From the sequence record PZ476263.1: DNA of 64,000 bases. One strand, written 5' to 3'. Numbering within the stretch: position 1 is the first letter of the stretch; each line of letters begins with the position of its first letter. The stretch comes from a phage. Below, in pieces: positions 9,631-46,656 of the stretch. The position numbers were made by a program, and so were the translations under genes. Under the pieces are notes generated by a model that saw nothing but the letters and a program-made list of their open reading frames with translations, ran no database searches and had not been told where the DNA came from.

Positions 9631-10145
9631 AACCTCTCTCTTAATTTATCTCTGATATTATTAAGTCCTTCATTAAGCTTGGGCAATTCTGTCACAATAC
9701 CAGGGAAGAGTACATCAAAGAAATTCACTTCTTCCAATGTCGGACGACTCATGTCTTCAAAGAAGTCTTCTACCCTAATAAAATCTGTCCAAACTTTTGC
9801 TCTTCGTACTGCCAAGTGAACAGGTGTTCCATCAGAGAAGATCATCCAAGATATGCGAACATCATCAGTCTTAGGCTTAGGCAGTGTCGATATACAGAAC
9901 CGAGGCTTGTCTCTTAGGTTTGTCGAGGTCTGGCCCCAAAAACTCCCACGACCATACTGAAATTTGAACTTTACCTTCCCCACTTTCTGGGTGGTCTTCA
10001 TATCCCTGCGGAAGTCATGACCTTCTGTATATACAAGGTTCCGAATGTATTGATGTCGGCTACGGATGTGGCTCCATTGGGACCACTCCATAGATAGACG
10101 ATTCATTATACCCCTGAAATTTCTGAAATCAATCTCCGTTATCAT
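9621..10145 (-). CDS. hypothetical protein, FFEDP...FP family member
   Basis: Motif VEDFFEDMSRPTLEEVNFFDVLFPGI. Confidence 0.5.
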   Translation of the reverse strand: MITEIDFRNFRGIMNRLSMEWSQWSHIRSRHQYIRNLVYTEGHDFRRDMKTTQKVGKVKFKFQYGRGSFWGQTSTNLRDKPRFCISTLPKPKTDDVRISWMIFSDGTPVHLAVRRAKVWTDFIRVEDFFEDMSRPTLEEVNFFDVLFPGIVTELPKLNEGLNNIRDKLRERFCG

Positions 10146-10389
10146 CTTCTTCTTTATCCTCAGCTACTGTAGTCTTTGGTGGCTCTGCCCCAACAATTTC
10201 AAATTTGGCAACACCCAGTACAACAACATGCCCCAGTGAGGATACTCCTGTCCAAGCTGTGCCGTTCTTTTTAGTGCGGTCACCAGTGATATCACAGAAA
10301 TCATTCTTCATCTCTGTAGCTTCGTATACTTTACCCTTTTGAAATACGTCTGTAAAGTCTTTAATTACATTTACACATTTGATTTCCAC
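10129..10389 (-). CDS. hypothetical protein
   Basis: ORF track, 86 aa. Confidence 0.4.
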   Translation of the reverse strand: MEIKCVNVIKDFTDVFQKGKVYEATEMKNDFCDITGDRTKKNGTAWTGVSSLGHVVVLGVAKFEIVGAEPPKTTVAEDKEEDDNGD

Positions 10390-10398
10390 AATCTCTCC

Positions 10399-10683
10399 TC
10401 ACCCTATTGAAAAGTTAACTACCAGTTCTCGCCTTTGTATATGAGATTTCTCGATAGCAATGTTTTTATAAAAATCTAAAACTTCGTGTAATCTTATAGC
10501 TCTCATCTTCAACTCATCGCTGAATAAGCCTCTATCCTTAGTTAACCAAGCAATTTCGTTAGCCTCTTCTTCAAGAGACGAGTCCTCAAAAATACCTTTT
10601 ATACTCAGGCGATCAATTGTTGAACAAATTGCTTCAAATTCGTACCAGTTCATATCTTCAATTTCCAATTTAGCAATCCTCAT
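10399..10683 (-). CDS. hypothetical protein
   Basis: ORF track, 94 aa. Confidence 0.45.
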   Translation of the reverse strand: MRIAKLEIEDMNWYEFEAICSTIDRLSIKGIFEDSSLEEEANEIAWLTKDRGLFSDELKMRAIRLHEVLDFYKNIAIEKSHIQRRELVVNFSIG

Positions 10684-10804
10684 CTTTATTTGAACGTTTT
10701 AATCGAATTTAAGGCCCCTAGAAGCCACGTAGGATTAAATTTAAAGAGAGGATGATAAATCACCTTACCTATCTTTAAACTTCGTCAGAGGCTTTCTGAG
10801 AGCG

Positions 10805-11068
10805 TTATAGACCGAGAGCTTCCATTTCGTACTTTAAACCTTGCAGCGTACCATTAAAAATAACAGGTTTGCCCTCGACAGGTTGATTGATAAAAACCTG
10901 ATTAGTGACTTCATCAATGTAAGTTAATTCTTCTTTTATCAACGGCTCTTCAAAGACTTGCTTGTTGATCCCTGGAAGAACCATAAGGACAGCCATTGTC
11001 GCATCAGATCCAAATCCACATTCAACTGCTTTATCTTCTTCTCGGTTGTAAATCCAAATAGTTACCAT
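10805..11068 (-). CDS. hypothetical protein
   Basis: ORF track, 87 aa. Confidence 0.45.
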   Translation of the reverse strand: MVTIWIYNREEDKAVECGFGSDATMAVLMVLPGINKQVFEEPLIKEELTYIDEVTNQVFINQPVEGKPVIFNGTLQGLKYEMEALGL

Positions 11069-13517: not shown

Positions 13518-14102
13518 TCATTTTCGAAGAGAAGCTTTCTCTAAAACTAAGGATGTTCGAGGTTCAGCCAATCCTGTGCCATAAACATACCAATCACCGC
13601 TCAAATTTTGCCTTGCACCATAGGAACCGAGTTCAACTCCTCTGTATTTAACATCGTAACCGCCGTTTTCAGATACGATGACCATGTTATCAAAATCTAA
13701 ACCTAAGTGATTCAGGAGTTGAGTCATTTCTCTTGCCATATCTAAGCTCTCCATATTTCCTGACTTCTTATCCTTTGTGGGCTGGTAAAGCTCAAGTTTC
13801 AAAAATACATTTTGATGAATATCGTCAAGCTCGGCCTCGTCACGATAGCAAGGTGTCAGTGCCTGTAATTTTCCAGCAGGTAGGATTCCATCTTTTTCAA
13901 GCTGTAAAAAAGATTGCTCGGCGGAAGCAACAGCGCTTTTGCCGTTTGGCTGTTTAATTCTACCATCTTTAACGTCATCAGGGCAAGTTTTGGACATCAC
14001 ATCTTCATCAACATAACCTGGGACAGTTGTTTTTTCAAACCCTCTCTGCTCCCAAAAGTAAGAGGCTTCAAAAATAACCGCTAAACTAATTGGACTGTTC
14101 AT
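13518..14102 (-). CDS. seryl-tRNA-synthetase-like class II catalytic core fragment (truncated)
   Basis: TPCYRDEAELDD...FLKLELY matches class II motif 2 (SerRS TPCFRSEAGS...), and YGTGLAEPRTSLVL matches motif 3 (SerRS GSGLAVGRTLVA); only 194 aa, no tRNA-binding arm. Recalled motifs, not searched. Confidence 0.5.
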   Translation of the reverse strand: MNSPISLAVIFEASYFWEQRGFEKTTVPGYVDEDVMSKTCPDDVKDGRIKQPNGKSAVASAEQSFLQLEKDGILPAGKLQALTPCYRDEAELDDIHQNVFLKLELYQPTKDKKSGNMESLDMAREMTQLLNHLGLDFDNMVIVSENGGYDVKYRGVELGSYGARQNLSGDWYVYGTGLAEPRTSLVLEKASLRK

Positions 14103-14111
14103 GTTATCTCC

Positions 14112-14618
14112 TTAGCGTTTACCGTTTTCAAATGCACGTTTGGTTATAGATGACATTTTGATCAGATCGTCTAATGTCACACCCTCATGGCTACTTTTTA
14201 GATAGCCTTCAATTGCACCGATCAAATCAGAAAGCTCTACCAGCTCCATGATCTTGCATCCTTGACTTTTGGCATCCAGTAATTCTTGAACCTCTTCAAG
14301 AATTTTTTCTGCTGTACCATATTGATGCTTTTCAATTTTAGCAAGATGATAACCGACAGATTTAGGATTTCGAGTGCTCGCTTCGAAGTTTCCACCAGCA
14401 ACATACCAATTCTTGTTGATAGTTACTATAAAAACTCCAATATCTTTTACATTGATACAGCTATAATCTTCACATGCCGACTTTGTTGTTTCAAATGGAT
14501 AATTGTCATCAACGCCTTTTTCTGCGACGAGATTCAACTTCAATCCGTGCATATCGAGCACACCGTTACGTCGTGCAACTTCCAGCAGATCTCGGTATTT
14601 GATTTGTTTATTTTTCAT
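14112..14618 (-). CDS. hypothetical protein
   Basis: ORF track, 168 aa. Confidence 0.45.
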   Translation of the reverse strand: MKNKQIKYRDLLEVARRNGVLDMHGLKLNLVAEKGVDDNYPFETTKSACEDYSCINVKDIGVFIVTINKNWYVAGGNFEASTRNPKSVGYHLAKIEKHQYGTAEKILEEVQELLDAKSQGCKIMELVELSDLIGAIEGYLKSSHEGVTLDDLIKMSSITKRAFENGKR

Positions 14619-14644: not shown

Positions 14645-15130
14645 CTATGAAGCAGGCATACACCCCAACATTCTCCAACAATAATACCTTGTATTTTTAT
14701 CATGGTCAATATGATTTACGGGTCCTATCCTATTGCAACCGCAACATTTTTTCTCCTCTCTTAGATAATCTATGCTACAAGAGTGTGGGTGGTCGAAAGC
14801 ATCTCTCATCTCGAAACATAATTCAAGAAGCCACTTGAACCTCTTGGGGTAAGCAACTGAAAGCAATTCAAGTTCTTGAAAAGTAGGATTAACTGGGTCT
14901 TCAAAAAAGTCAAGCATGTCTTCATAAAGTATAACATTCTTAACTTTACCATTCTCAATTTCATAGGAGAAATCTTCTGTTAACCTTACCGTAACCTCTT
15001 TTACAAATAATTTATCTTCCTCATTTCTTCCCAGGTGGTCTTCGATCCATTTTATAACGAAGAATCTGCTTCTTTGAACATCCATGTTCAAAATTTCAAG
15101 CATATCTTCAATGCTTAAAGGTCTTTCCAT
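14645..15130 (-). CDS. hypothetical protein, FFEDP...FP family member with Cys/His-rich C-terminus
   Basis: Motif MLDFFEDPVNPTFQELELLSVAYP plus C-terminal CCGCNRIGPVNHIDHDKNTRYYCW. Confidence 0.5.
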   Translation of the reverse strand: MERPLSIEDMLEILNMDVQRSRFFVIKWIEDHLGRNEEDKLFVKEVTVRLTEDFSYEIENGKVKNVILYEDMLDFFEDPVNPTFQELELLSVAYPKRFKWLLELCFEMRDAFDHPHSCSIDYLREEKKCCGCNRIGPVNHIDHDKNTRYYCWRMLGCMPAS

Positions 15131-16242
15131 ACCTGATCCTGTGCCTTTATAATCAAAGCCTCCGCAATTTTCAAATCACTTCGTTTAGGCAACTTTGTAG
15201 TCTTGTACAATTCACCACGGATCTCATTATCTTTCTTTTCTGCCCATTCAACAATCTCTTCGTAAGTTTTTGCACCGTTACGAATAGATAGTAGCTCTTC
15301 TGCATCTGGTCGCTTAACAATCACGTTACCAGTTCGAAGAATTTCTTCACCCATACGAAGAAGTCGTACAAGATGCATTGCATGTTTTGTGTCAAAACCG
15401 TACTTAACTTCAAGCTCGTGACGTTTTGCATTCCGGTTCTCTACCCATGTCCAATAATTACGATGTTTCTCTTTAGCTAAGTTGTGTTCTTGACGAAGAT
15501 ACTTAACGATAAACAGCGGACAGGTTGTTTTAACATCATCTCCGATTTTGTCGTATTCGAGAGCACGGATTGAACCATCCGGATTAAACATTGATGCACT
15601 TTCGAAATATGTCGACACAACACCATAAATATCTCCACCATAAGGGACCAACGTACAAAAATCATTCATGTTTCGTAATTTACGCGTGAAGACTTCATGG
15701 CTCATAACAGGATCGGATTGTAAATAACTTTGTACCAGTCGCATATAATCAAACTGGGTGGGCATTTCTTTCGGTTGCGGGTTGTTAATATGCTTATTGT
15801 GACCCTTGATCCGTTTTAACTGAGCCATAGCATAACCGCTGAAACGAAAAGCAACATTACTGTTCAACAGTTTGTGGAGATTCTCTTTAATGCCAAACCA
15901 AGCCTCATGCTCGTACAAAGTGGATTCTTTGTCTGTGAATCCTAATTCAATGATGTTTGGATTCATTTCTTTAAAAAGCGTCATGAATGTACCAAGTTCA
16001 TAAACCTTACCATCCTCTTCACCCTCAATGTTTAATTCGGTGACTGTTTTGAAAGGTGTACGAACAATATTTTCTTTTGCCACGAAGATCCCACGGATGT
16101 CTACATCACTTCCTTCCATGTTAGTCCCATAAGCATGTGATCCCGATAATGTCAGAAGAAGAACCTTCGCCACGTCTGGATGTTTTTCCAGTTTCTCTAC
16201 GATGCTTTTTACCTTTCCAGCACTCACAACAGAATTTGCCAT
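15115..16242 (-). CDS. nucleotidyltransferase-fold protein (Pol-beta-like GS...DxD)
   Basis: N-terminal LSGSHAYGTNMEGSDVDIRGIF fits the G-S-x(9-13)-D-x-D minimal nucleotidyltransferase signature; 375 aa; substrate unknown. Confidence 0.5.
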   Translation of the reverse strand: MANSVVSAGKVKSIVEKLEKHPDVAKVLLLTLSGSHAYGTNMEGSDVDIRGIFVAKENIVRTPFKTVTELNIEGEEDGKVYELGTFMTLFKEMNPNIIELGFTDKESTLYEHEAWFGIKENLHKLLNSNVAFRFSGYAMAQLKRIKGHNKHINNPQPKEMPTQFDYMRLVQSYLQSDPVMSHEVFTRKLRNMNDFCTLVPYGGDIYGVVSTYFESASMFNPDGSIRALEYDKIGDDVKTTCPLFIVKYLRQEHNLAKEKHRNYWTWVENRNAKRHELEVKYGFDTKHAMHLVRLLRMGEEILRTGNVIVKRPDAEELLSIRNGAKTYEEIVEWAEKKDNEIRGELYKTTKLPKRSDLKIAEALIIKAQDQVWKDL

Positions 16243-16332
16243 TTATCCTCCAATCATTCTTATCACAGAGGCCAACCCAGTTGGCCTGTTTTATTTTTAT
16301 AAAGTATACGCAACTAGTGCAATCTTTTTTAC

Positions 16333-16722: not shown

Positions 16723-17108
16723 TAAATATCCCCTTCTAAAATATCGTTGATAAGATCTAAAATTTCAAGTTCTGAATTACCGTTGGACAAAATCATATTG
16801 AGTCTTTGCACAACTCCGTCTCTAAACATCACATGATTAATTTCCCCTTTACCTCTTAAACTACTCACCATCTGTTTGTATCGGATGTGTTCAGTATATT
16901 CTTCTTTAGACATCGTTGTCAATGCATTTCTGCTGTTTCTTAAAAATACTTTTCCAGTATCCCAATCAAACCCTTGCCGGACGTAATCAACCGTAACAGC
17001 TGAGTTAGCTCCTATGGTTACTGTCCCGCTCTCAACAGGGATAACCACTTCAAAGTCTTCATTCACCGTACCTAACAGATCTCTCAATTCTCTTACTTTC
17101 ATAGTCAC
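16722..17108 (-). CDS. hypothetical protein
   Basis: ORF track, 128 aa; stop/start overlap. Confidence 0.45.
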   Translation of the reverse strand: MTMKVRELRDLLGTVNEDFEVVIPVESGTVTIGANSAVTVDYVRQGFDWDTGKVFLRNSRNALTTMSKEEYTEHIRYKQMVSSLRGKGEINHVMFRDGVVQRLNMILSNGNSELEILDLINDILEGDI

Positions 17109-17542
17109 CCCTTCAATTTCATCTTTTTAAATTCATATACAAACCTTTTTTCTTGTGGTGTAAGTTCTTCATTTCCGATAACCTCACCCTCCTTGTTTAC
17201 ATAGGTGTTCCAAAGCTTCTCTGGCAAAACAAAAGCGATTGCGGTAAGAGCGCCGTTCAATGCATGTTGTTCCTCATGAAAATATGTAAAGGGGATTTCA
17301 TCGGCAATAGGTAAAATAAATTCATCAGTAAAATCATACATTGCCTTCTGATACCCACCATTCAATAAAATCATAGTTTCATCTTTAGTTACCCACTGCT
17401 TCATTAATTTAACTCGGCAGTCGTCAGGATCAACATTTGTTGAATAATTGTGTACCAGCCGACATGCTGCATGGGCTGCTTGGATACCTGCCTGAATACC
17501 AGAAATGTATTGGTTAACAATCACGTACATACGGCTCTTCAT
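17105..17542 (-). CDS. PTH2-like peptidyl-tRNA hydrolase (tentative)
   Basis: MYVIVNQYISGIQAGIQAAHAA resembles the PTH2 core (V-x-V-x-D/N-L-x-M-G-K-G-K-I-A-A-Q-C-S-H-A-A); recalled. Confidence 0.4.
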   Translation of the reverse strand: MKSRMYVIVNQYISGIQAGIQAAHAACRLVHNYSTNVDPDDCRVKLMKQWVTKDETMILLNGGYQKAMYDFTDEFILPIADEIPFTYFHEEQHALNGALTAIAFVLPEKLWNTYVNKEGEVIGNEELTPQEKRFVYEFKKMKLKG

Positions 17543-17908: not shown

Positions 17909-18235
17909 TCAATTATCTTTCATGTTAAATATTTTTCTTGCTAATTTTTCATTACCGATAGTAATTTGCCATAACCGGATTAGAAGAGTTAGCGCACAAA
18001 CTATCAGGTAGAACAAAATCAAGAAGGCCCACCCGAAAGGCCAAAATACTGCCATCACTAGCCACCCAATCATCAAGGCATTCCAATTAATCCTCCCCCT
18101 ATTTAAAGGGTCCAATAGATTACCACCATTCTTTGCAGGTAAAGGTATATAAAACCCACATTGCCGTAATTTTATTAAAATGAACCACACACCTGCACTT
18201 ATAATAACCCCTAAAAAATAAACTAATATGCTCAT
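17909..18235 (-). CDS. hypothetical membrane protein
   Basis: 108 aa, hydrophobic; similar architecture to 17554..17898. Confidence 0.4.
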   Translation of the reverse strand: MSILVYFLGVIISAGVWFILIKLRQCGFYIPLPAKNGGNLLDPLNRGRINWNALMIGWLVMAVFWPFGWAFLILFYLIVCALTLLIRLWQITIGNEKLARKIFNMKDN

Positions 18236-19506
18236 ATTTCTTTCTCCTCCTCTTCTTTCAGTTTTAATTTTATCTCGGCAAGTGCCTTCTTAACATAACC
18301 TACTTTGAGGTCCCTTACTTTTGAACGAATAACTTCTGGTCGTCCTTTGAATTTTTCAGCGATATCTTTACTCTCTTCAGAGATAGCTACACTGTTTTGA
18401 GTAATCCCTGCCAGTGCTGAATATAATACTTCAACAGAGTCGTACTTGTCAAACATTTTTTCTTCCCCACGTCCTCGTGCATCACAAAGACAAGCCTCTG
18501 CAAACTTCCCAAAAAATTCTTGGTCTTTTTCTCCACGTAGCCGATAGATAAGGTCATACACGGAGGTTGCTTTCATATCTTTGATTCTATGCATACGTGT
18601 ATGTTCTTCGGTCACAATCATGGCAAGCTTTTTCCAACTATTTGGAACACCCATACGATCACAAAGTTCTTCAACAATCGGAACTCCGTATTGTTCATGA
18701 CCATGAAGCTTTTTATCTCTCCAATAAATACTCTTCCCTAGGTCATGACAAAGAACAGCCCACTTAACATCCGGCGGTGACATGATCTTTTGAGCGTAGT
18801 CCAAACACAAAAAGGTATGGATCAGTGCGTCACCTTCTGGATGGTGTTTCTTCGGCTGCTCAACATAATGAAGATTGAACAGCTCAGGAAATTCACCAAG
18901 TCCTGTCAAGAAGCGGAACATAAGGCTAGGCTTATTCTTCTCAGAGTTATCCATGAGACATTTATTAATCTCTGCCCACTTGCGTTCTTTTGGTAGGTAC
19001 TTAACTTGAGCATATCCATTAAAACATGCAGTTAAAGTATCAGGGTGGATACTGAAATCATCACCATATCGAGCATATAACCTTGCAAGTCGATAAATAC
19101 GCAAAGGGTCTTCTTGGAATGCAGTTTTGGAAACACACCGCAAAGATTTTTGCTTTAGGTGCTCAATACCTCCAAATGGATCAATATACTCACCTGTTTC
19201 GAGGTCTTTTGCAATAGCGTTGATAGTTAGGTCGCGTCTTTCCAAATCTTGTTCGATAGTCACATCTGGAGAAAACACAACTTCGAAATCATGATAGCCA
19301 GGTCCTGTTGATTTTTCAGTACGGGCCAGTGCATATTCTTCTTTTGTTAACGGATCAAGGTATACAGGAAACGCCGCCCCCACTTTTGTAAATCCCTTTG
19401 CGATCATTTCTTCATGGGTTGAGCCGACGACAACATAATCTCGGTCTTTACTTTCAACACCCAGAATCTCGTCACGTACTGCACCACCAACTAAATAGAT
19501 TTTCAT
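18232..19506 (-). CDS. tRNA nucleotidyltransferase (CCA-adding enzyme) with HD domain
   Basis: N-terminal LVGGAVRDEILG (GGxVRD head motif), internal RRDLTINA, and HD-domain motif CHDLGK. Confidence 0.7.
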   Translation of the reverse strand: MKIYLVGGAVRDEILGVESKDRDYVVVGSTHEEMIAKGFTKVGAAFPVYLDPLTKEEYALARTEKSTGPGYHDFEVVFSPDVTIEQDLERRDLTINAIAKDLETGEYIDPFGGIEHLKQKSLRCVSKTAFQEDPLRIYRLARLYARYGDDFSIHPDTLTACFNGYAQVKYLPKERKWAEINKCLMDNSEKNKPSLMFRFLTGLGEFPELFNLHYVEQPKKHHPEGDALIHTFLCLDYAQKIMSPPDVKWAVLCHDLGKSIYWRDKKLHGHEQYGVPIVEELCDRMGVPNSWKKLAMIVTEEHTRMHRIKDMKATSVYDLIYRLRGEKDQEFFGKFAEACLCDARGRGEEKMFDKYDSVEVLYSALAGITQNSVAISEESKDIAEKFKGRPEVIRSKVRDLKVGYVKKALAEIKLKLKEEEEKEI

Positions 19507-44472: not shown

Positions 44473-44952
44473 TCAATAGTTATTGTAAATATCTTTCGCT
44501 TCTTCTCGTCGAGAATCCATAAGGATCTTTTCTTTAGCCAAAGAATCTTTTTTCAACTTGGCTTTCTTGTCAGATACCTTTTTCTTGATTGCATAGTACA
44601 ATACATCTCTTTCAACGTGGTTCATCCATTCGAGATCACCATTTACAAACAAAGTATCTCTCAAAACACCAGGCCACCTCTCAAAATATGTAACCCTGCT
44701 AGGATTCATAGAATCCACCAAAGTAAATTCCACTTCCCATGTATCAGGTGCATCATCATCTGAGTCTGGATTATCCGTGTAATAACCTGTGTGGATCGTG
44801 AACCAGCCAAGGTCATTGCGAATAGATCCGATTATCTTATCAGCAGGTGCTTTAACCATAATGTACTCGTAAACTTTGCAAATCACAATGTAAATCAGTA
44901 CAAATCCGATAGTAATGAAGATCCCTACAAAATCTGACAAAAACTCAATCAT
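44473..44952 (-). CDS. hypothetical protein with N-terminal transmembrane helix
   Basis: 159 aa; N-terminal hydrophobic IFITIGFVLIYIVICKVY. Confidence 0.45.
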   Translation of the reverse strand: MIEFLSDFVGIFITIGFVLIYIVICKVYEYIMVKAPADKIIGSIRNDLGWFTIHTGYYTDNPDSDDDAPDTWEVEFTLVDSMNPSRVTYFERWPGVLRDTLFVNGDLEWMNHVERDVLYYAIKKKVSDKKAKLKKDSLAKEKILMDSRREEAKDIYNNY

Positions 44953-46322
44953 TTCTTAGTCCTCTTAACCAGCGCTCGTAATGTCTCAAGAAGAGAATCG
45001 GCATGTTCAATAACTTCACCAAGGGTATTCGCTTTAGTCTTATCATGACGGATCTCAACGAACTTATAATTTAGTCGTGGTAAAAACAGAGACTTAAGAT
45101 CCTTATTCTCAGCATCTGTAATATCATTTGCCTTGATCGTGATAATCTGACCAATAAAATATTCCGGTGCTTTCTTACGTAAAGCGTCTGTCAGTCCTGA
45201 ACCTACACCAACTTCCAAAAGACCATCTCGTGTACGGCAAACAAGAGAACCGACAAGCGAAGGATCTTTTTTGTGAGGTAAGGTAGCAACAACCTCAAGA
45301 TCCACGTCGAATTCGTTCTTCAGCTTAATACCTTTCTTAGTCTTATTGTCACCCCAAGGCATGTTTGCCTCTTTCAAGACCGTACCTTCCTTCTTCTGTT
45401 GACGCATCTCGATGAAGTGGTCAATAGCCTCTTCAAGACTATCGATCTGACGACCACGGATCATCTTTAAATGAGAAGACTCATCCACATAGTTGACAAT
45501 ATTTTCAACCTGCTTACGGCGGTCTTTATATTTTTTCTTAGACTTACGTGCAATATACTCGTCCATAGAAACAACATCCCAAACAACCAAGCGTACCAAA
45601 TTAGGATCAATATTTTCAGGATCCTGGTTCAGATAGCCGTTACCGATCTCTCGTGGCTGAACTCCGTGTGGATAAGACAGATCAATAACTAAACCTTCCC
45701 CGTGCATAACAAAAGGACCATCAGAATTGGCTTTTTCTTTCAGGTTTTGCTCAAGTGAAGGAATACACCGGAAATTAAGCTCTTTCCCTGATCGTGAACG
45801 ATAAATGATCTGTTCAGGCCAAACCATAATGTCTGCATAAAGTCCGTCCATCTTCTCGTCGGAGAAAGCGCCCTCATAATCAAACTTGATCAACAGATCC
45901 TCTTTAAAAAGCGTATAACTTTGGTAAGGTGGCTCTGTGATCAGACCTTTCCACACCTTGTTTGTAAGAGTGGTCTGTACACCACAGTCGAGATCACGAT
46001 TTATAACTTTTAACAGAGTTTCCGGCTCAGAGCAAAGCTGAACAGTGTTGATCATTTCTTCACGGGCTGCATAGCCTGTAATTTTTCGACCGCAAACAAA
46101 TTTAACCAGATATCGGATCGAGTCAACAAGACTGTTATTGCCTTGGTGGAATGTTGATTCCATGACTTTCAAGCCACGGACATAAAAATTCAACTCTTTG
46201 GAATAGGTGACTTGGAATACATATTCCAGATCTTTATTATCTCGATTTGCGACCAAGATTGCTTCTTTCTCTTTTGTGGATCGGGTTGCTGCCAGTTGAT
46301 TGATAATATCTGTTACTTTCAT
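44949..46322 (-). CDS. ATP-dependent DNA ligase (T4-like)
   Basis: N-terminus MKVTDIINQLAATRSTKEKEAIL parallels recalled T4 ligase MILKILNEIASIGSTKQKQAIL; adenylation motif EKMDGLYADIMV (KxDG); C-terminal EIRHDKTKANT. Start set to internal Met. Confidence 0.65.
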   Translation of the reverse strand: MKVTDIINQLAATRSTKEKEAILVANRDNKDLEYVFQVTYSKELNFYVRGLKVMESTFHQGNNSLVDSIRYLVKFVCGRKITGYAAREEMINTVQLCSEPETLLKVINRDLDCGVQTTLTNKVWKGLITEPPYQSYTLFKEDLLIKFDYEGAFSDEKMDGLYADIMVWPEQIIYRSRSGKELNFRCIPSLEQNLKEKANSDGPFVMHGEGLVIDLSYPHGVQPREIGNGYLNQDPENIDPNLVRLVVWDVVSMDEYIARKSKKKYKDRRKQVENIVNYVDESSHLKMIRGRQIDSLEEAIDHFIEMRQQKKEGTVLKEANMPWGDNKTKKGIKLKNEFDVDLEVVATLPHKKDPSLVGSLVCRTRDGLLEVGVGSGLTDALRKKAPEYFIGQIITIKANDITDAENKDLKSLFLPRLNYKFVEIRHDKTKANTLGEVIEHADSLLETLRALVKRTKK

Positions 46323-46332
46323 TTTGTCTCCT

Positions 46333-46656
46333 TTATTTTTTAATAACTCGAAGTCTTTTCGCCAACACCCAAGTCCCGCCTTGACTTTCAGGACGATTGA
46401 ACATTTCGATACCTTCCACTTCAACTTCATACCATTTGCGTATTTCTCCCGACTTGAGATTCATACTCAAATGTGGTGCATGAGGTTTCAATGTGCAATG
46501 CCAACCTGGTCTTATTGCAAACCCCCGTGTCGGGTGGTTCTCCGCCTCCATCCAAACATCTGGCTCAATCACCAATTTACGATTGATAAATAATGGTCCT
46601 ATTGTACCATCCTTTCTTACTCGAAACAACTTATATGCTTTGATCTTTTTAATCAT
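46333..46656 (-). CDS. hypothetical protein
   Basis: ORF track, 107 aa. Confidence 0.45.
   Translation of the reverse strand: MIKKIKAYKLFRVRKDGTIGPLFINRKLVIEPDVWMEAENHPTRGFAIRPGWHCTLKPHAPHLSMNLKSGEIRKWYEVEVEGIEMFNRPESQGGTWVLAKRLRVIKK

Follow-up and report, generated by a model that had tools for sequence, protein, structure and literature searches.

The open reading frame (ORF) at positions 15115..16242 (minus strand, stop codon included) of a 64,000-nucleotide stretch of phage DNA (sequence record PZ476263.1; the whole stretch is hereafter the window) encodes a 375-aa protein with an ATG start. By its sequence, this protein is a member of the RlaP family of nucleotidyltransferases (NTases) (PF10127, 'RNA repair pathway DNA polymerase beta family') and falls into a phage-type subgroup whose C-terminal half diverges. 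The family is already known: it has a name, an RNA-repair function had been predicted for it in phages, and bacterial members were characterised recently. The gene is thus not a discovery in itself, and the useful point is its context. In mid-sized enterobacterial myoviruses, the RlaP-type enzyme travels with a CCA-adding enzyme and a tentatively PTH2-like protein, not with an RNA ligase. Based on this arrangement, we lean, by a little, towards a role in RNA or tRNA 3'-end repair, of whatever kind, carried out together with the CCA-adding enzyme.

Family membership and active site

The match of the protein to PF10127 scores 59.4 bits (E 5.7e-16), the gathering cut-off of this family being 23 bits, and spans profile positions 10-140 of 249 only. 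The match to phrog_388 ('nucleotidyltransferase') is full length (E 9e-78). The best match among GenBank phage proteins is from Escherichia phage A7_1 (70.7%). The PHROG 388 genes of Vequintavirinae phages, for example, Cronobacter phage CR9 gp211, Pectobacterium phage CB7_175 and Escherichia phage A7_1 gene 25, are orthologs, with 65-71% identity over the full length and a shared gene order; they differ in nothing substantive from the window gene and are annotated merely as 'nucleotidyltransferase' or 'hypothetical protein'. Homologs reach E = 1e-234, and 5929 representatives of 50%-identity clusters match at E <= 1e-3; thus, the ORF is not a chance frame. A 90%-clustered database returned 3592 matches, and PF10127 is carried by all of the full-length ones. 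No match to PF01743, the head domain of class II CCA-adding enzymes and poly(A) polymerases, was found in the ORF, and searches of PDB sequences, whether made with the protein itself or with a 40-sequence profile, returned nothing meaningful.

A preliminary description of this DNA, made from the sequence alone, had recognised a Pol-beta-type nucleotidyltransferase by its G-S…D-x-D signature. This signature, G34-S35 and D46-x-D48, lies in residues 32-53 of the protein (LSGSHAYGTNMEGSDVDIRGIF) and is intact and conserved in homologs. When 126 representatives of the 50%-identity clusters were aligned, G34/S35 were present in 119 of the 119 aligned representatives, and the loss of catalytic Asp residues that had been named as a sign against enzymatic activity was not found, D46 being kept in 118 and D48 in 119 of 120 representatives. 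The third carboxylate, D77, is D in 112 representatives and E in 8. Because the catalytic Asp residues are kept across homologs, the family is, as far as residue conservation tells, one of active enzymes.

A confident AlphaFold2 model, obtained with a 40-sequence alignment (predicted local distance difference test, pLDDT, 91.6), has four parts, all encoded on the minus strand. The Pol-beta NTase core (approximately residues 24-111; 15910..16173) contains G34-S35, D46-x-D48 and D77 and is the portion that can be aligned to canonical RlaP. Linker helices follow (approximately residues 113-157; 15772..15906), with the conserved motif F-S-G-Y-A-x-x-Q-L-K-R-I-K-G-H, and lead to a predicted beta-rich inserted subdomain (approximately residues 160-250; 15493..15765). 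This insert is variable among homologs, and short forms, such as the 264-aa phage-type protein P0197, are devoid of it. The last part is a predicted C-terminal helical bundle with a HEPN-like fold (residues 251-375; 15118..15492). The helical region of approximately 300 aa described earlier is therefore borne out for the linker and the C-terminal bundle, whereas the beta-rich insert between them had been missed.

The bundle holds a nearly invariant cluster composed of W266, R270, N271, R274, E278, D284, K286, H287, H290, R293, E300, R311, D313, R321 and G323, which putatively lines the cleft for nucleoside triphosphate (NTP) and RNA. We also considered an HEPN RNase motif (R-x4-6-H) in the bundle; the R270...H275 spacing fits, but H275 is not conserved, and the motif was rejected.

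An intein-like insertion of approximately 325 aa is present in the homolog P0121 (699 aa) and in about 8 of the 150 listed representatives. Its site, between D284 and T285 (approximately nt 15388-15393 of the window), splits the most conserved motif (GYD/TKHAMHLVR). The insertion has Cys as its first residue, ends in ...HGN, is followed by Thr and contains LAGLIDADG-like motifs. Functionally critical sites are the usual locations of inteins. Further homologs are interrupted around residues 153-190.

Comparison with bacterial RlaP and T4 NrdC.11

RlaP is the most prevalent NTase of jumbo phages, with a distribution like that of RNA ligases, and has been predicted to restore lost nucleotides ahead of ligation (PMC7824862). 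The enzymes of P. fluorescens and P. aeruginosa (PfRlaP and PaRlaP) have been characterised in vitro in a preprint of December 2025 (10.64898/2025.12.29.696909), in which RNA was the sole E. coli macromolecule that they labelled. Both add one or two nucleoside monophosphates (NMPs) onto an RNA 3'-OH with little NTP specificity, using the four NTPs and accepting dATP; they prefer Mn2+ or Co2+ and are inactive on DNA, protein and RNA with a 3'-phosphate (10.64898/2025.12.29.696909). Their favoured substrate was the 5' half of a nicked-tRNA mimic, and RlaP partially rescued the aminoacylation of a tRNA short of one anticodon-loop nucleotide; an undiscovered RNA 3'-kinase was proposed as the missing step before RtcB ligation (10.64898/2025.12.29.696909). 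Because these bacterial PF10127 members add NMPs to the RNA 3'-OH, the substrate class of the phage protein is not unknown. The preliminary description had held that no substrate could be chosen from sequence; with a family score of more than twice the cut-off and two members that tail the RNA 3'-OH, that statement no longer stands.

The preliminary description had also proposed structure and profile searches. The former returned generic folds only, and the latter were informative. With small alignments, the hhalign comparison with canonical bacterial RlaPs gave a probability of 93.7% over the N-terminal NTase domain; with larger alignments and 120 canonical RlaPs, the probability was 97.5% (E 6e-12, 226 columns). 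In these alignments, the catalytic residues G34-S35, D46, D48 and D77 of the phage protein correspond to G32-S33, D44, D46 and D77 of canonical RlaP. The C-terminal half compared alone with canonical RlaP gave a probability of 13.5%, which is not significant.

The phage protein and the bacterial RlaPs, whose genes in P. fluorescens and P. aeruginosa belong to rtcB-rlaP-rtcA operons, have in common the G-S / D-x-D / D signature and, as far as the model predicts, a plan in which an N-terminal NTase domain is followed by a C-terminal helical domain. In the crystal structure of PfRlaP, which did not come up in the PDB searches by sequence or fold, the final helix folds back against the NTase domain. 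They differ in that the phage protein is approximately 110 residues longer, with its beta-rich insert, and has an invariant motif of its own, R-N-x-x-R...G-x-D-x-K-H-x-x-H-x-x-R. The partner gene also differs, being a CCA-adding enzyme for the phage RlaP and RtcB or another RNA ligase for the bacterial one.

Three proteins connect the canonical and the phage types. P0197 matches the Pfam RlaP profile over positions 23-227 of 249. P0204 (631 aa) joins both types in one polypeptide: residues 15-241 are a canonical RlaP (Pfam E 1e-94), and the phage-type RlaP occupies residues 289-616. The third protein, T4 NrdC.11, has been listed as a member of the RlaP family (10.64898/2025.12.29.696909). It matches PF10127 through its N-terminal half only, which is the pattern seen in the window ORF, and in a global alignment, the two proteins share G-S, D-x-D, K286, H290, R293, E300 and G323, with an identity of approximately 20-26%. 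We file the ORF under the phage-type subgroup of PF10127 because P0197, P0204 and T4 NrdC.11 bridge both groups. Since P0204 holds both types in one polypeptide, the canonical and phage types may have complementary, non-redundant roles.

Linkage to a CCA-adding enzyme and other RNA-repair genes

A gene for a CCA-adding tRNA nucleotidyltransferase (18232..19506, minus strand; 424 aa, with a PolyA_pol head, PF01743, and an HD domain) is located in the window 2 kb upstream of the RlaP-type gene and on the same strand. Between them lies the gene of a 145-aa 'hydrolase' (17105..17542, minus strand; phrog_3668), tentatively PTH2-like. We found a CCA-adding gene on the same strand and at most approximately 3.5 kb upstream of the RlaP-type gene in 10 of 12 lineages, namely, the window, A7_1, CR9, CB7, GEC_vB_MG, Vibrio phage D148 and the metagenomic L015, L017, L019 and L020. 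RlaP identity across these linked lineages goes down to 41% (D148), with 47-49% in the four metagenomic ones, and the number of genes between the CCA-adding and RlaP-type genes varies from 0 to 5, these genes differing among lineages. Among the annotated phages, the full arrangement, including the hydrolase, is present in A7_1, CR9 and GEC_vB_MG; CB7 has the pair without the hydrolase. In 8 of the 12 lineages, the hydrolase gene is a close neighbour of the RlaP-type gene, on either side of it, L019 being a case in which it is found on the other side. Weak similarity of the hydrolase to PTH2, a peptidyl-tRNA hydrolase (PF01981), was detected in 8 of 24 homologs (best E 2.5e-4), and no other family recurs among them. 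A PDB profile search with the PTH2-like hydrolase gave no match.

Additional repair genes adjoin the pair in some relatives. In D148, the cluster also includes Thg1 (PF04446, E 1e-28), an Rnl1-type RNA ligase (PF09511, E 1e-13) and Pnkp. In L019, a full-length PseT-like Pnkp is encoded 2.6 kb downstream, and in L015, an AAA_33 kinase and a metallophosphoesterase adjoin the CCA-adding/RlaP-type pair. Linkage to CCA-adding and PTH2-like genes, joined in D148 by Thg1, Rnl1 and Pnkp, therefore points to tRNA ends. RNA or tRNA 3' tailing, which the preliminary description had listed among its candidates, gains from this gene linkage and from membership in PF10127.

Considered as a locus, the D148 cluster (L012, positions 1586-10996) is a compact tRNA-repair island of 9.4 kb on one strand, with a CCA-adding enzyme, a PTH2-like protein, the RlaP-type NTase, a Thg1-like 3'-5' polymerase, an Rnl1-type ligase and Pnkp.

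The association with RNA ligases that gave RlaP its name is present in the distant D148 and was not seen in the window or in CB7. The 64-kb window, outside which lies approximately 80 kb of the genome, and the complete genome of CB7 (142.8 kb) were searched by tblastn with five queries (RnlA, RnlB and PseT of T4; RtcB and RtcA of E. coli), and neither gave a match at E < 0.5. The annotation of CB7 has no RNA ligase, Pnkp or RtcB/RtcA gene. The sole ligase of the window (44949..46430) was considered as an RNA ligase and rejected, as it is of the T4 Dnl-like ATP-dependent DNA-ligase type.

Among the top cluster representatives, in which fusions were tallied, five phage-type RlaPs (P0147, P0150, P0180, P0233 and P0241) carry a C-terminal RNase_T domain, a DEDD 3'-5' exonuclease. 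Because a 3'-5' exonuclease is fused to RlaP, these proteins argue for a nucleic-acid 3' end as the common substrate. A further protein, P0223, combines a phage-type RlaP with an APS-kinase domain (E 4e-60); the reaction of APS kinase is the phosphorylation of a ribose 3'-OH.

Proposed function and alternatives

By its family, the phage protein would be a template-independent Pol-beta NTase that extends an RNA 3'-OH by one or a few NMPs, its D46, D48 and D77 holding two metal ions. By analogy with the Pseudomonas enzymes and from the gene context, we infer that the phage type shares the bacterial RlaP chemistry and that tRNA 3' tails are its substrate, as well as the order of the steps given below. 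The persistent ligase-free linkage to CCA-adding and PTH2-like genes suggests a role in tRNA 3'-tail repair. Restoration of the discriminator base on tRNAs is a specific form of this role that we put forward only tentatively. It is likewise possible, though we would not rely on it, that RlaP, the CCA-adding enzyme and the PTH2-like hydrolase constitute a ligase-independent tRNA 3'-tail module with a counter-defence function, distinct from the anticodon-loop repair performed by Pnkp and Rnl.

The CCA-adding enzyme rebuilds only C74-C75-A76, on a tRNA still ending at N73. In the module proposed here, host nucleases would trim tRNAs past the CCA and into the discriminator position, where the CCA-adding enzyme alone would be insufficient; candidates are immune nucleases of the acceptor-end type, such as Cas12a3 or an HEPN toxin. 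An HEPN toxin studied by Songailiene et al. in 2020 reportedly takes 4 nt off. Many tRNAs are truncated by Cas12a3 at 2-4 nt from their 3' end, as far in as the discriminator base (PMC12851939). The PTH2-like enzyme would free the tRNA acceptor end, and the HD domain of the CCA-adding enzyme, or another phosphoesterase, would first clean this end and leave a 3'-OH for RlaP. RlaP would then re-add the missing nucleotide or nucleotides, and the CCA-adding enzyme would finally rebuild the CCA. The HD domain of the E. coli CCA-adding enzyme is said to be a 2',3'-cyclic phosphodiesterase and phosphatase, from work by Yakunin et al. in 2004. Because a non-templated enzyme adds one or two nucleotides, trimmed tRNAs would come back within the reach of the CCA-adding enzyme.

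Several observations weigh against this proposal. Convincing alignment to canonical RlaP is limited to the N-terminal 105-150 residues, and because the C-terminal half is not alignable, the substrate specificity of the phage type may differ. The biochemistry comes from two Pseudomonas RlaPs, and its extension to the phage type is by analogy. With non-templated addition and little discrimination among NTPs, only a fraction of the tRNAs would regain the right discriminator base. The CCA linkage is absent in 2 of the 12 lineages, L021 and the jumbo phage SE_PL, and elsewhere it may partly reflect shared phage ancestry rather than selection. The PTH2 assignment is sub-threshold, the hydrolase of the window matching with E 0.014. 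Finally, the gene of T4 NrdC.11 lies within a fragment whose deletion is tolerated in the laboratory and is thus dispensable there, which fits an accessory role and is silent on the substrate. T4 encodes Rnl1, Rnl2 and Pnkp, and we know of no CCA-adding enzyme in this phage.

The classical role of RlaP, in which anticodon-loop nucleotides are restored after the action of 'smart' anticodon nucleases (RloC-like) and an RNA ligase then seals the break, is in our view unlikely for the window protein. This role has been predicted for RlaP of bacteria and jumbo phages (PMC7824862) and proposed for the Pseudomonas enzymes (10.64898/2025.12.29.696909), and D148 and L019 indeed have Rnl1 and/or Pnkp near the RlaP-type gene, but the ligase or repair partner that it calls for was not found in the window, with the part of the genome covered as stated above, or in CB7. 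Host RtcB would be no substitute, as it requires a 3'-phosphate, which RlaP products do not have (10.64898/2025.12.29.696909). General tailing of RNA 3' ends, as a decay mark or a determinant of stability of host or phage RNAs, could be expected from an enzyme family that labels many E. coli RNAs in vitro, both rRNA-sized and tRNA-sized (10.64898/2025.12.29.696909). A variant of this idea is that the enzyme extends the CCA end to shut off host translation, like the MenT toxins, which block aminoacylation by such extension (PMC10435456, PMC11162799). However, the conserved partners of the phage type (CCA-adding enzyme, Pnkp, Thg1 and Rnl1) serve repair and maintenance and are not decay factors, and a phage with only five tRNAs depends on those of its host. 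We regard tailing in either form as improbable.

A non-RNA acceptor is the reading to which we give the least credence, and we consider it very improbable. The protein would then be a synthase of signalling oligonucleotides (CD-NTase/HalB-like), a small-molecule adenylyltransferase (ANT/KNTase-like) or an MNT-like protein AMPylase by which HEPN toxins of the host would be neutralised. The closest solved structures are indeed kanamycin nucleotidyltransferase ANT(4') and Hailong HalB, in which, as in the phage protein, a minimal NTase domain is followed by a helical (HEPN-like) substrate-binding domain. Nevertheless, the fold matches are generic, with 11-16% identity and query-normalised TM-scores (TMq) <= 0.25; the Foldseek match to ANT(4')/KNTase, for example, has E 2.4e-3, TMq 0.23 and 13% identity. 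The matches of the protein to MntA, NTP_transf_2 and Polbeta are all sub-threshold, that to MntA (NCBIfam NF047752) reaching 17.9 bits against a cut-off of 60, and a PADLOC scan gave no significant match. Additionally, bacterial RlaPs leave proteins and DNA unmodified (10.64898/2025.12.29.696909), and the gene context and exonuclease fusions indicate RNA ends. No specific match to a CD-NTase, a sponge, an ANT or an MNT protein was found, and we rejected these readings; with them go the signalling nucleotide, the sponge and the small molecule listed in the preliminary description.

In comparison with what is known of the family, two features are modestly new: the C-terminal module of the phage type, including the insert, and the ligase-free linkage to CCA-adding and PTH2-like genes, which persists across lineages. 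We did not find a role in tRNA 3'-tail repair stated in the accessible literature, which did not include the founding account of Burroughs & Aravind 2016. If RlaP extends the repair range of the CCA-adding enzyme, the pair would be a phage answer to immune nucleases that clip tRNA 3' tails. If true, this would provide a testable role for several thousand uncharacterised phage proteins, T4 NrdC.11 included.

Genome setting and neighbouring genes

The source phage is related to the Vequintavirinae (rV5-like myoviruses), and its likeness to E. coli Vequintavirinae phages at the DNA level is confined to one short stretch with 81-83% identity. The RlaP-type ORF is part of an extended run of minus-strand genes for nucleotide metabolism and accessory functions, among them NrdA/B, NrdD, PhoH, ClpP-like, ThyX-like, ATP-dependent DNA ligase and endonuclease VII genes. 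A strong Shine-Dalgarno sequence, GGAGGA (16247..16253, minus strand), can be read approximately 5 nt 5' of the ATG. At its other end, the ORF overlaps the downstream gene by 16 nt, an arrangement usual in co-transcribed phage genes. In the 90-nt gap between the NTase gene and an upstream membrane-protein gene, we observed a GC-rich hairpin (16269..16287; AGGCCAAC-CCA-GTTGGCCT), which is terminator-like solely when read on the plus strand.

Two small conserved genes directly follow the NTase gene on the minus strand. The overlapping one, directly 3' of it (14645..15130), encodes 161 aa with a Cys/His-rich C-terminus (CCGC...HIDHD...C), and phrog_12113 is its sole family match. The product of the other one (14112..14618) has a MazG/PRA-PH-like C-terminal domain, which at 19.4 bits falls just below the cut-off. 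A further minus-strand gene (13518..14102) encodes a 194-aa protein of phrog_4806, a family annotated as 'histidyl tRNA synthetase'. This protein has no Pfam match, and its similarity to PylRS, in the class II catalytic core, is weak (E 0.06-0.4). Conserved in A7_1, CR9, CB7 and L020, it is far below the length of a complete synthetase.

Five tRNA genes (Met-CAT, Tyr-GTA, Gly-TCC, Gln-TTG and Pro-TGG) are located at 51065..52824 on the plus strand; in the relative CB7, tRNA-Tyr is the only annotated tRNA. The coding strand and the GC skew switch at approximately 48-49 kb of the window. At 3923..7208 (minus strand), three successive ORFs of 380, 416 and 328 aa contain RCC1-like beta-propeller repeats.

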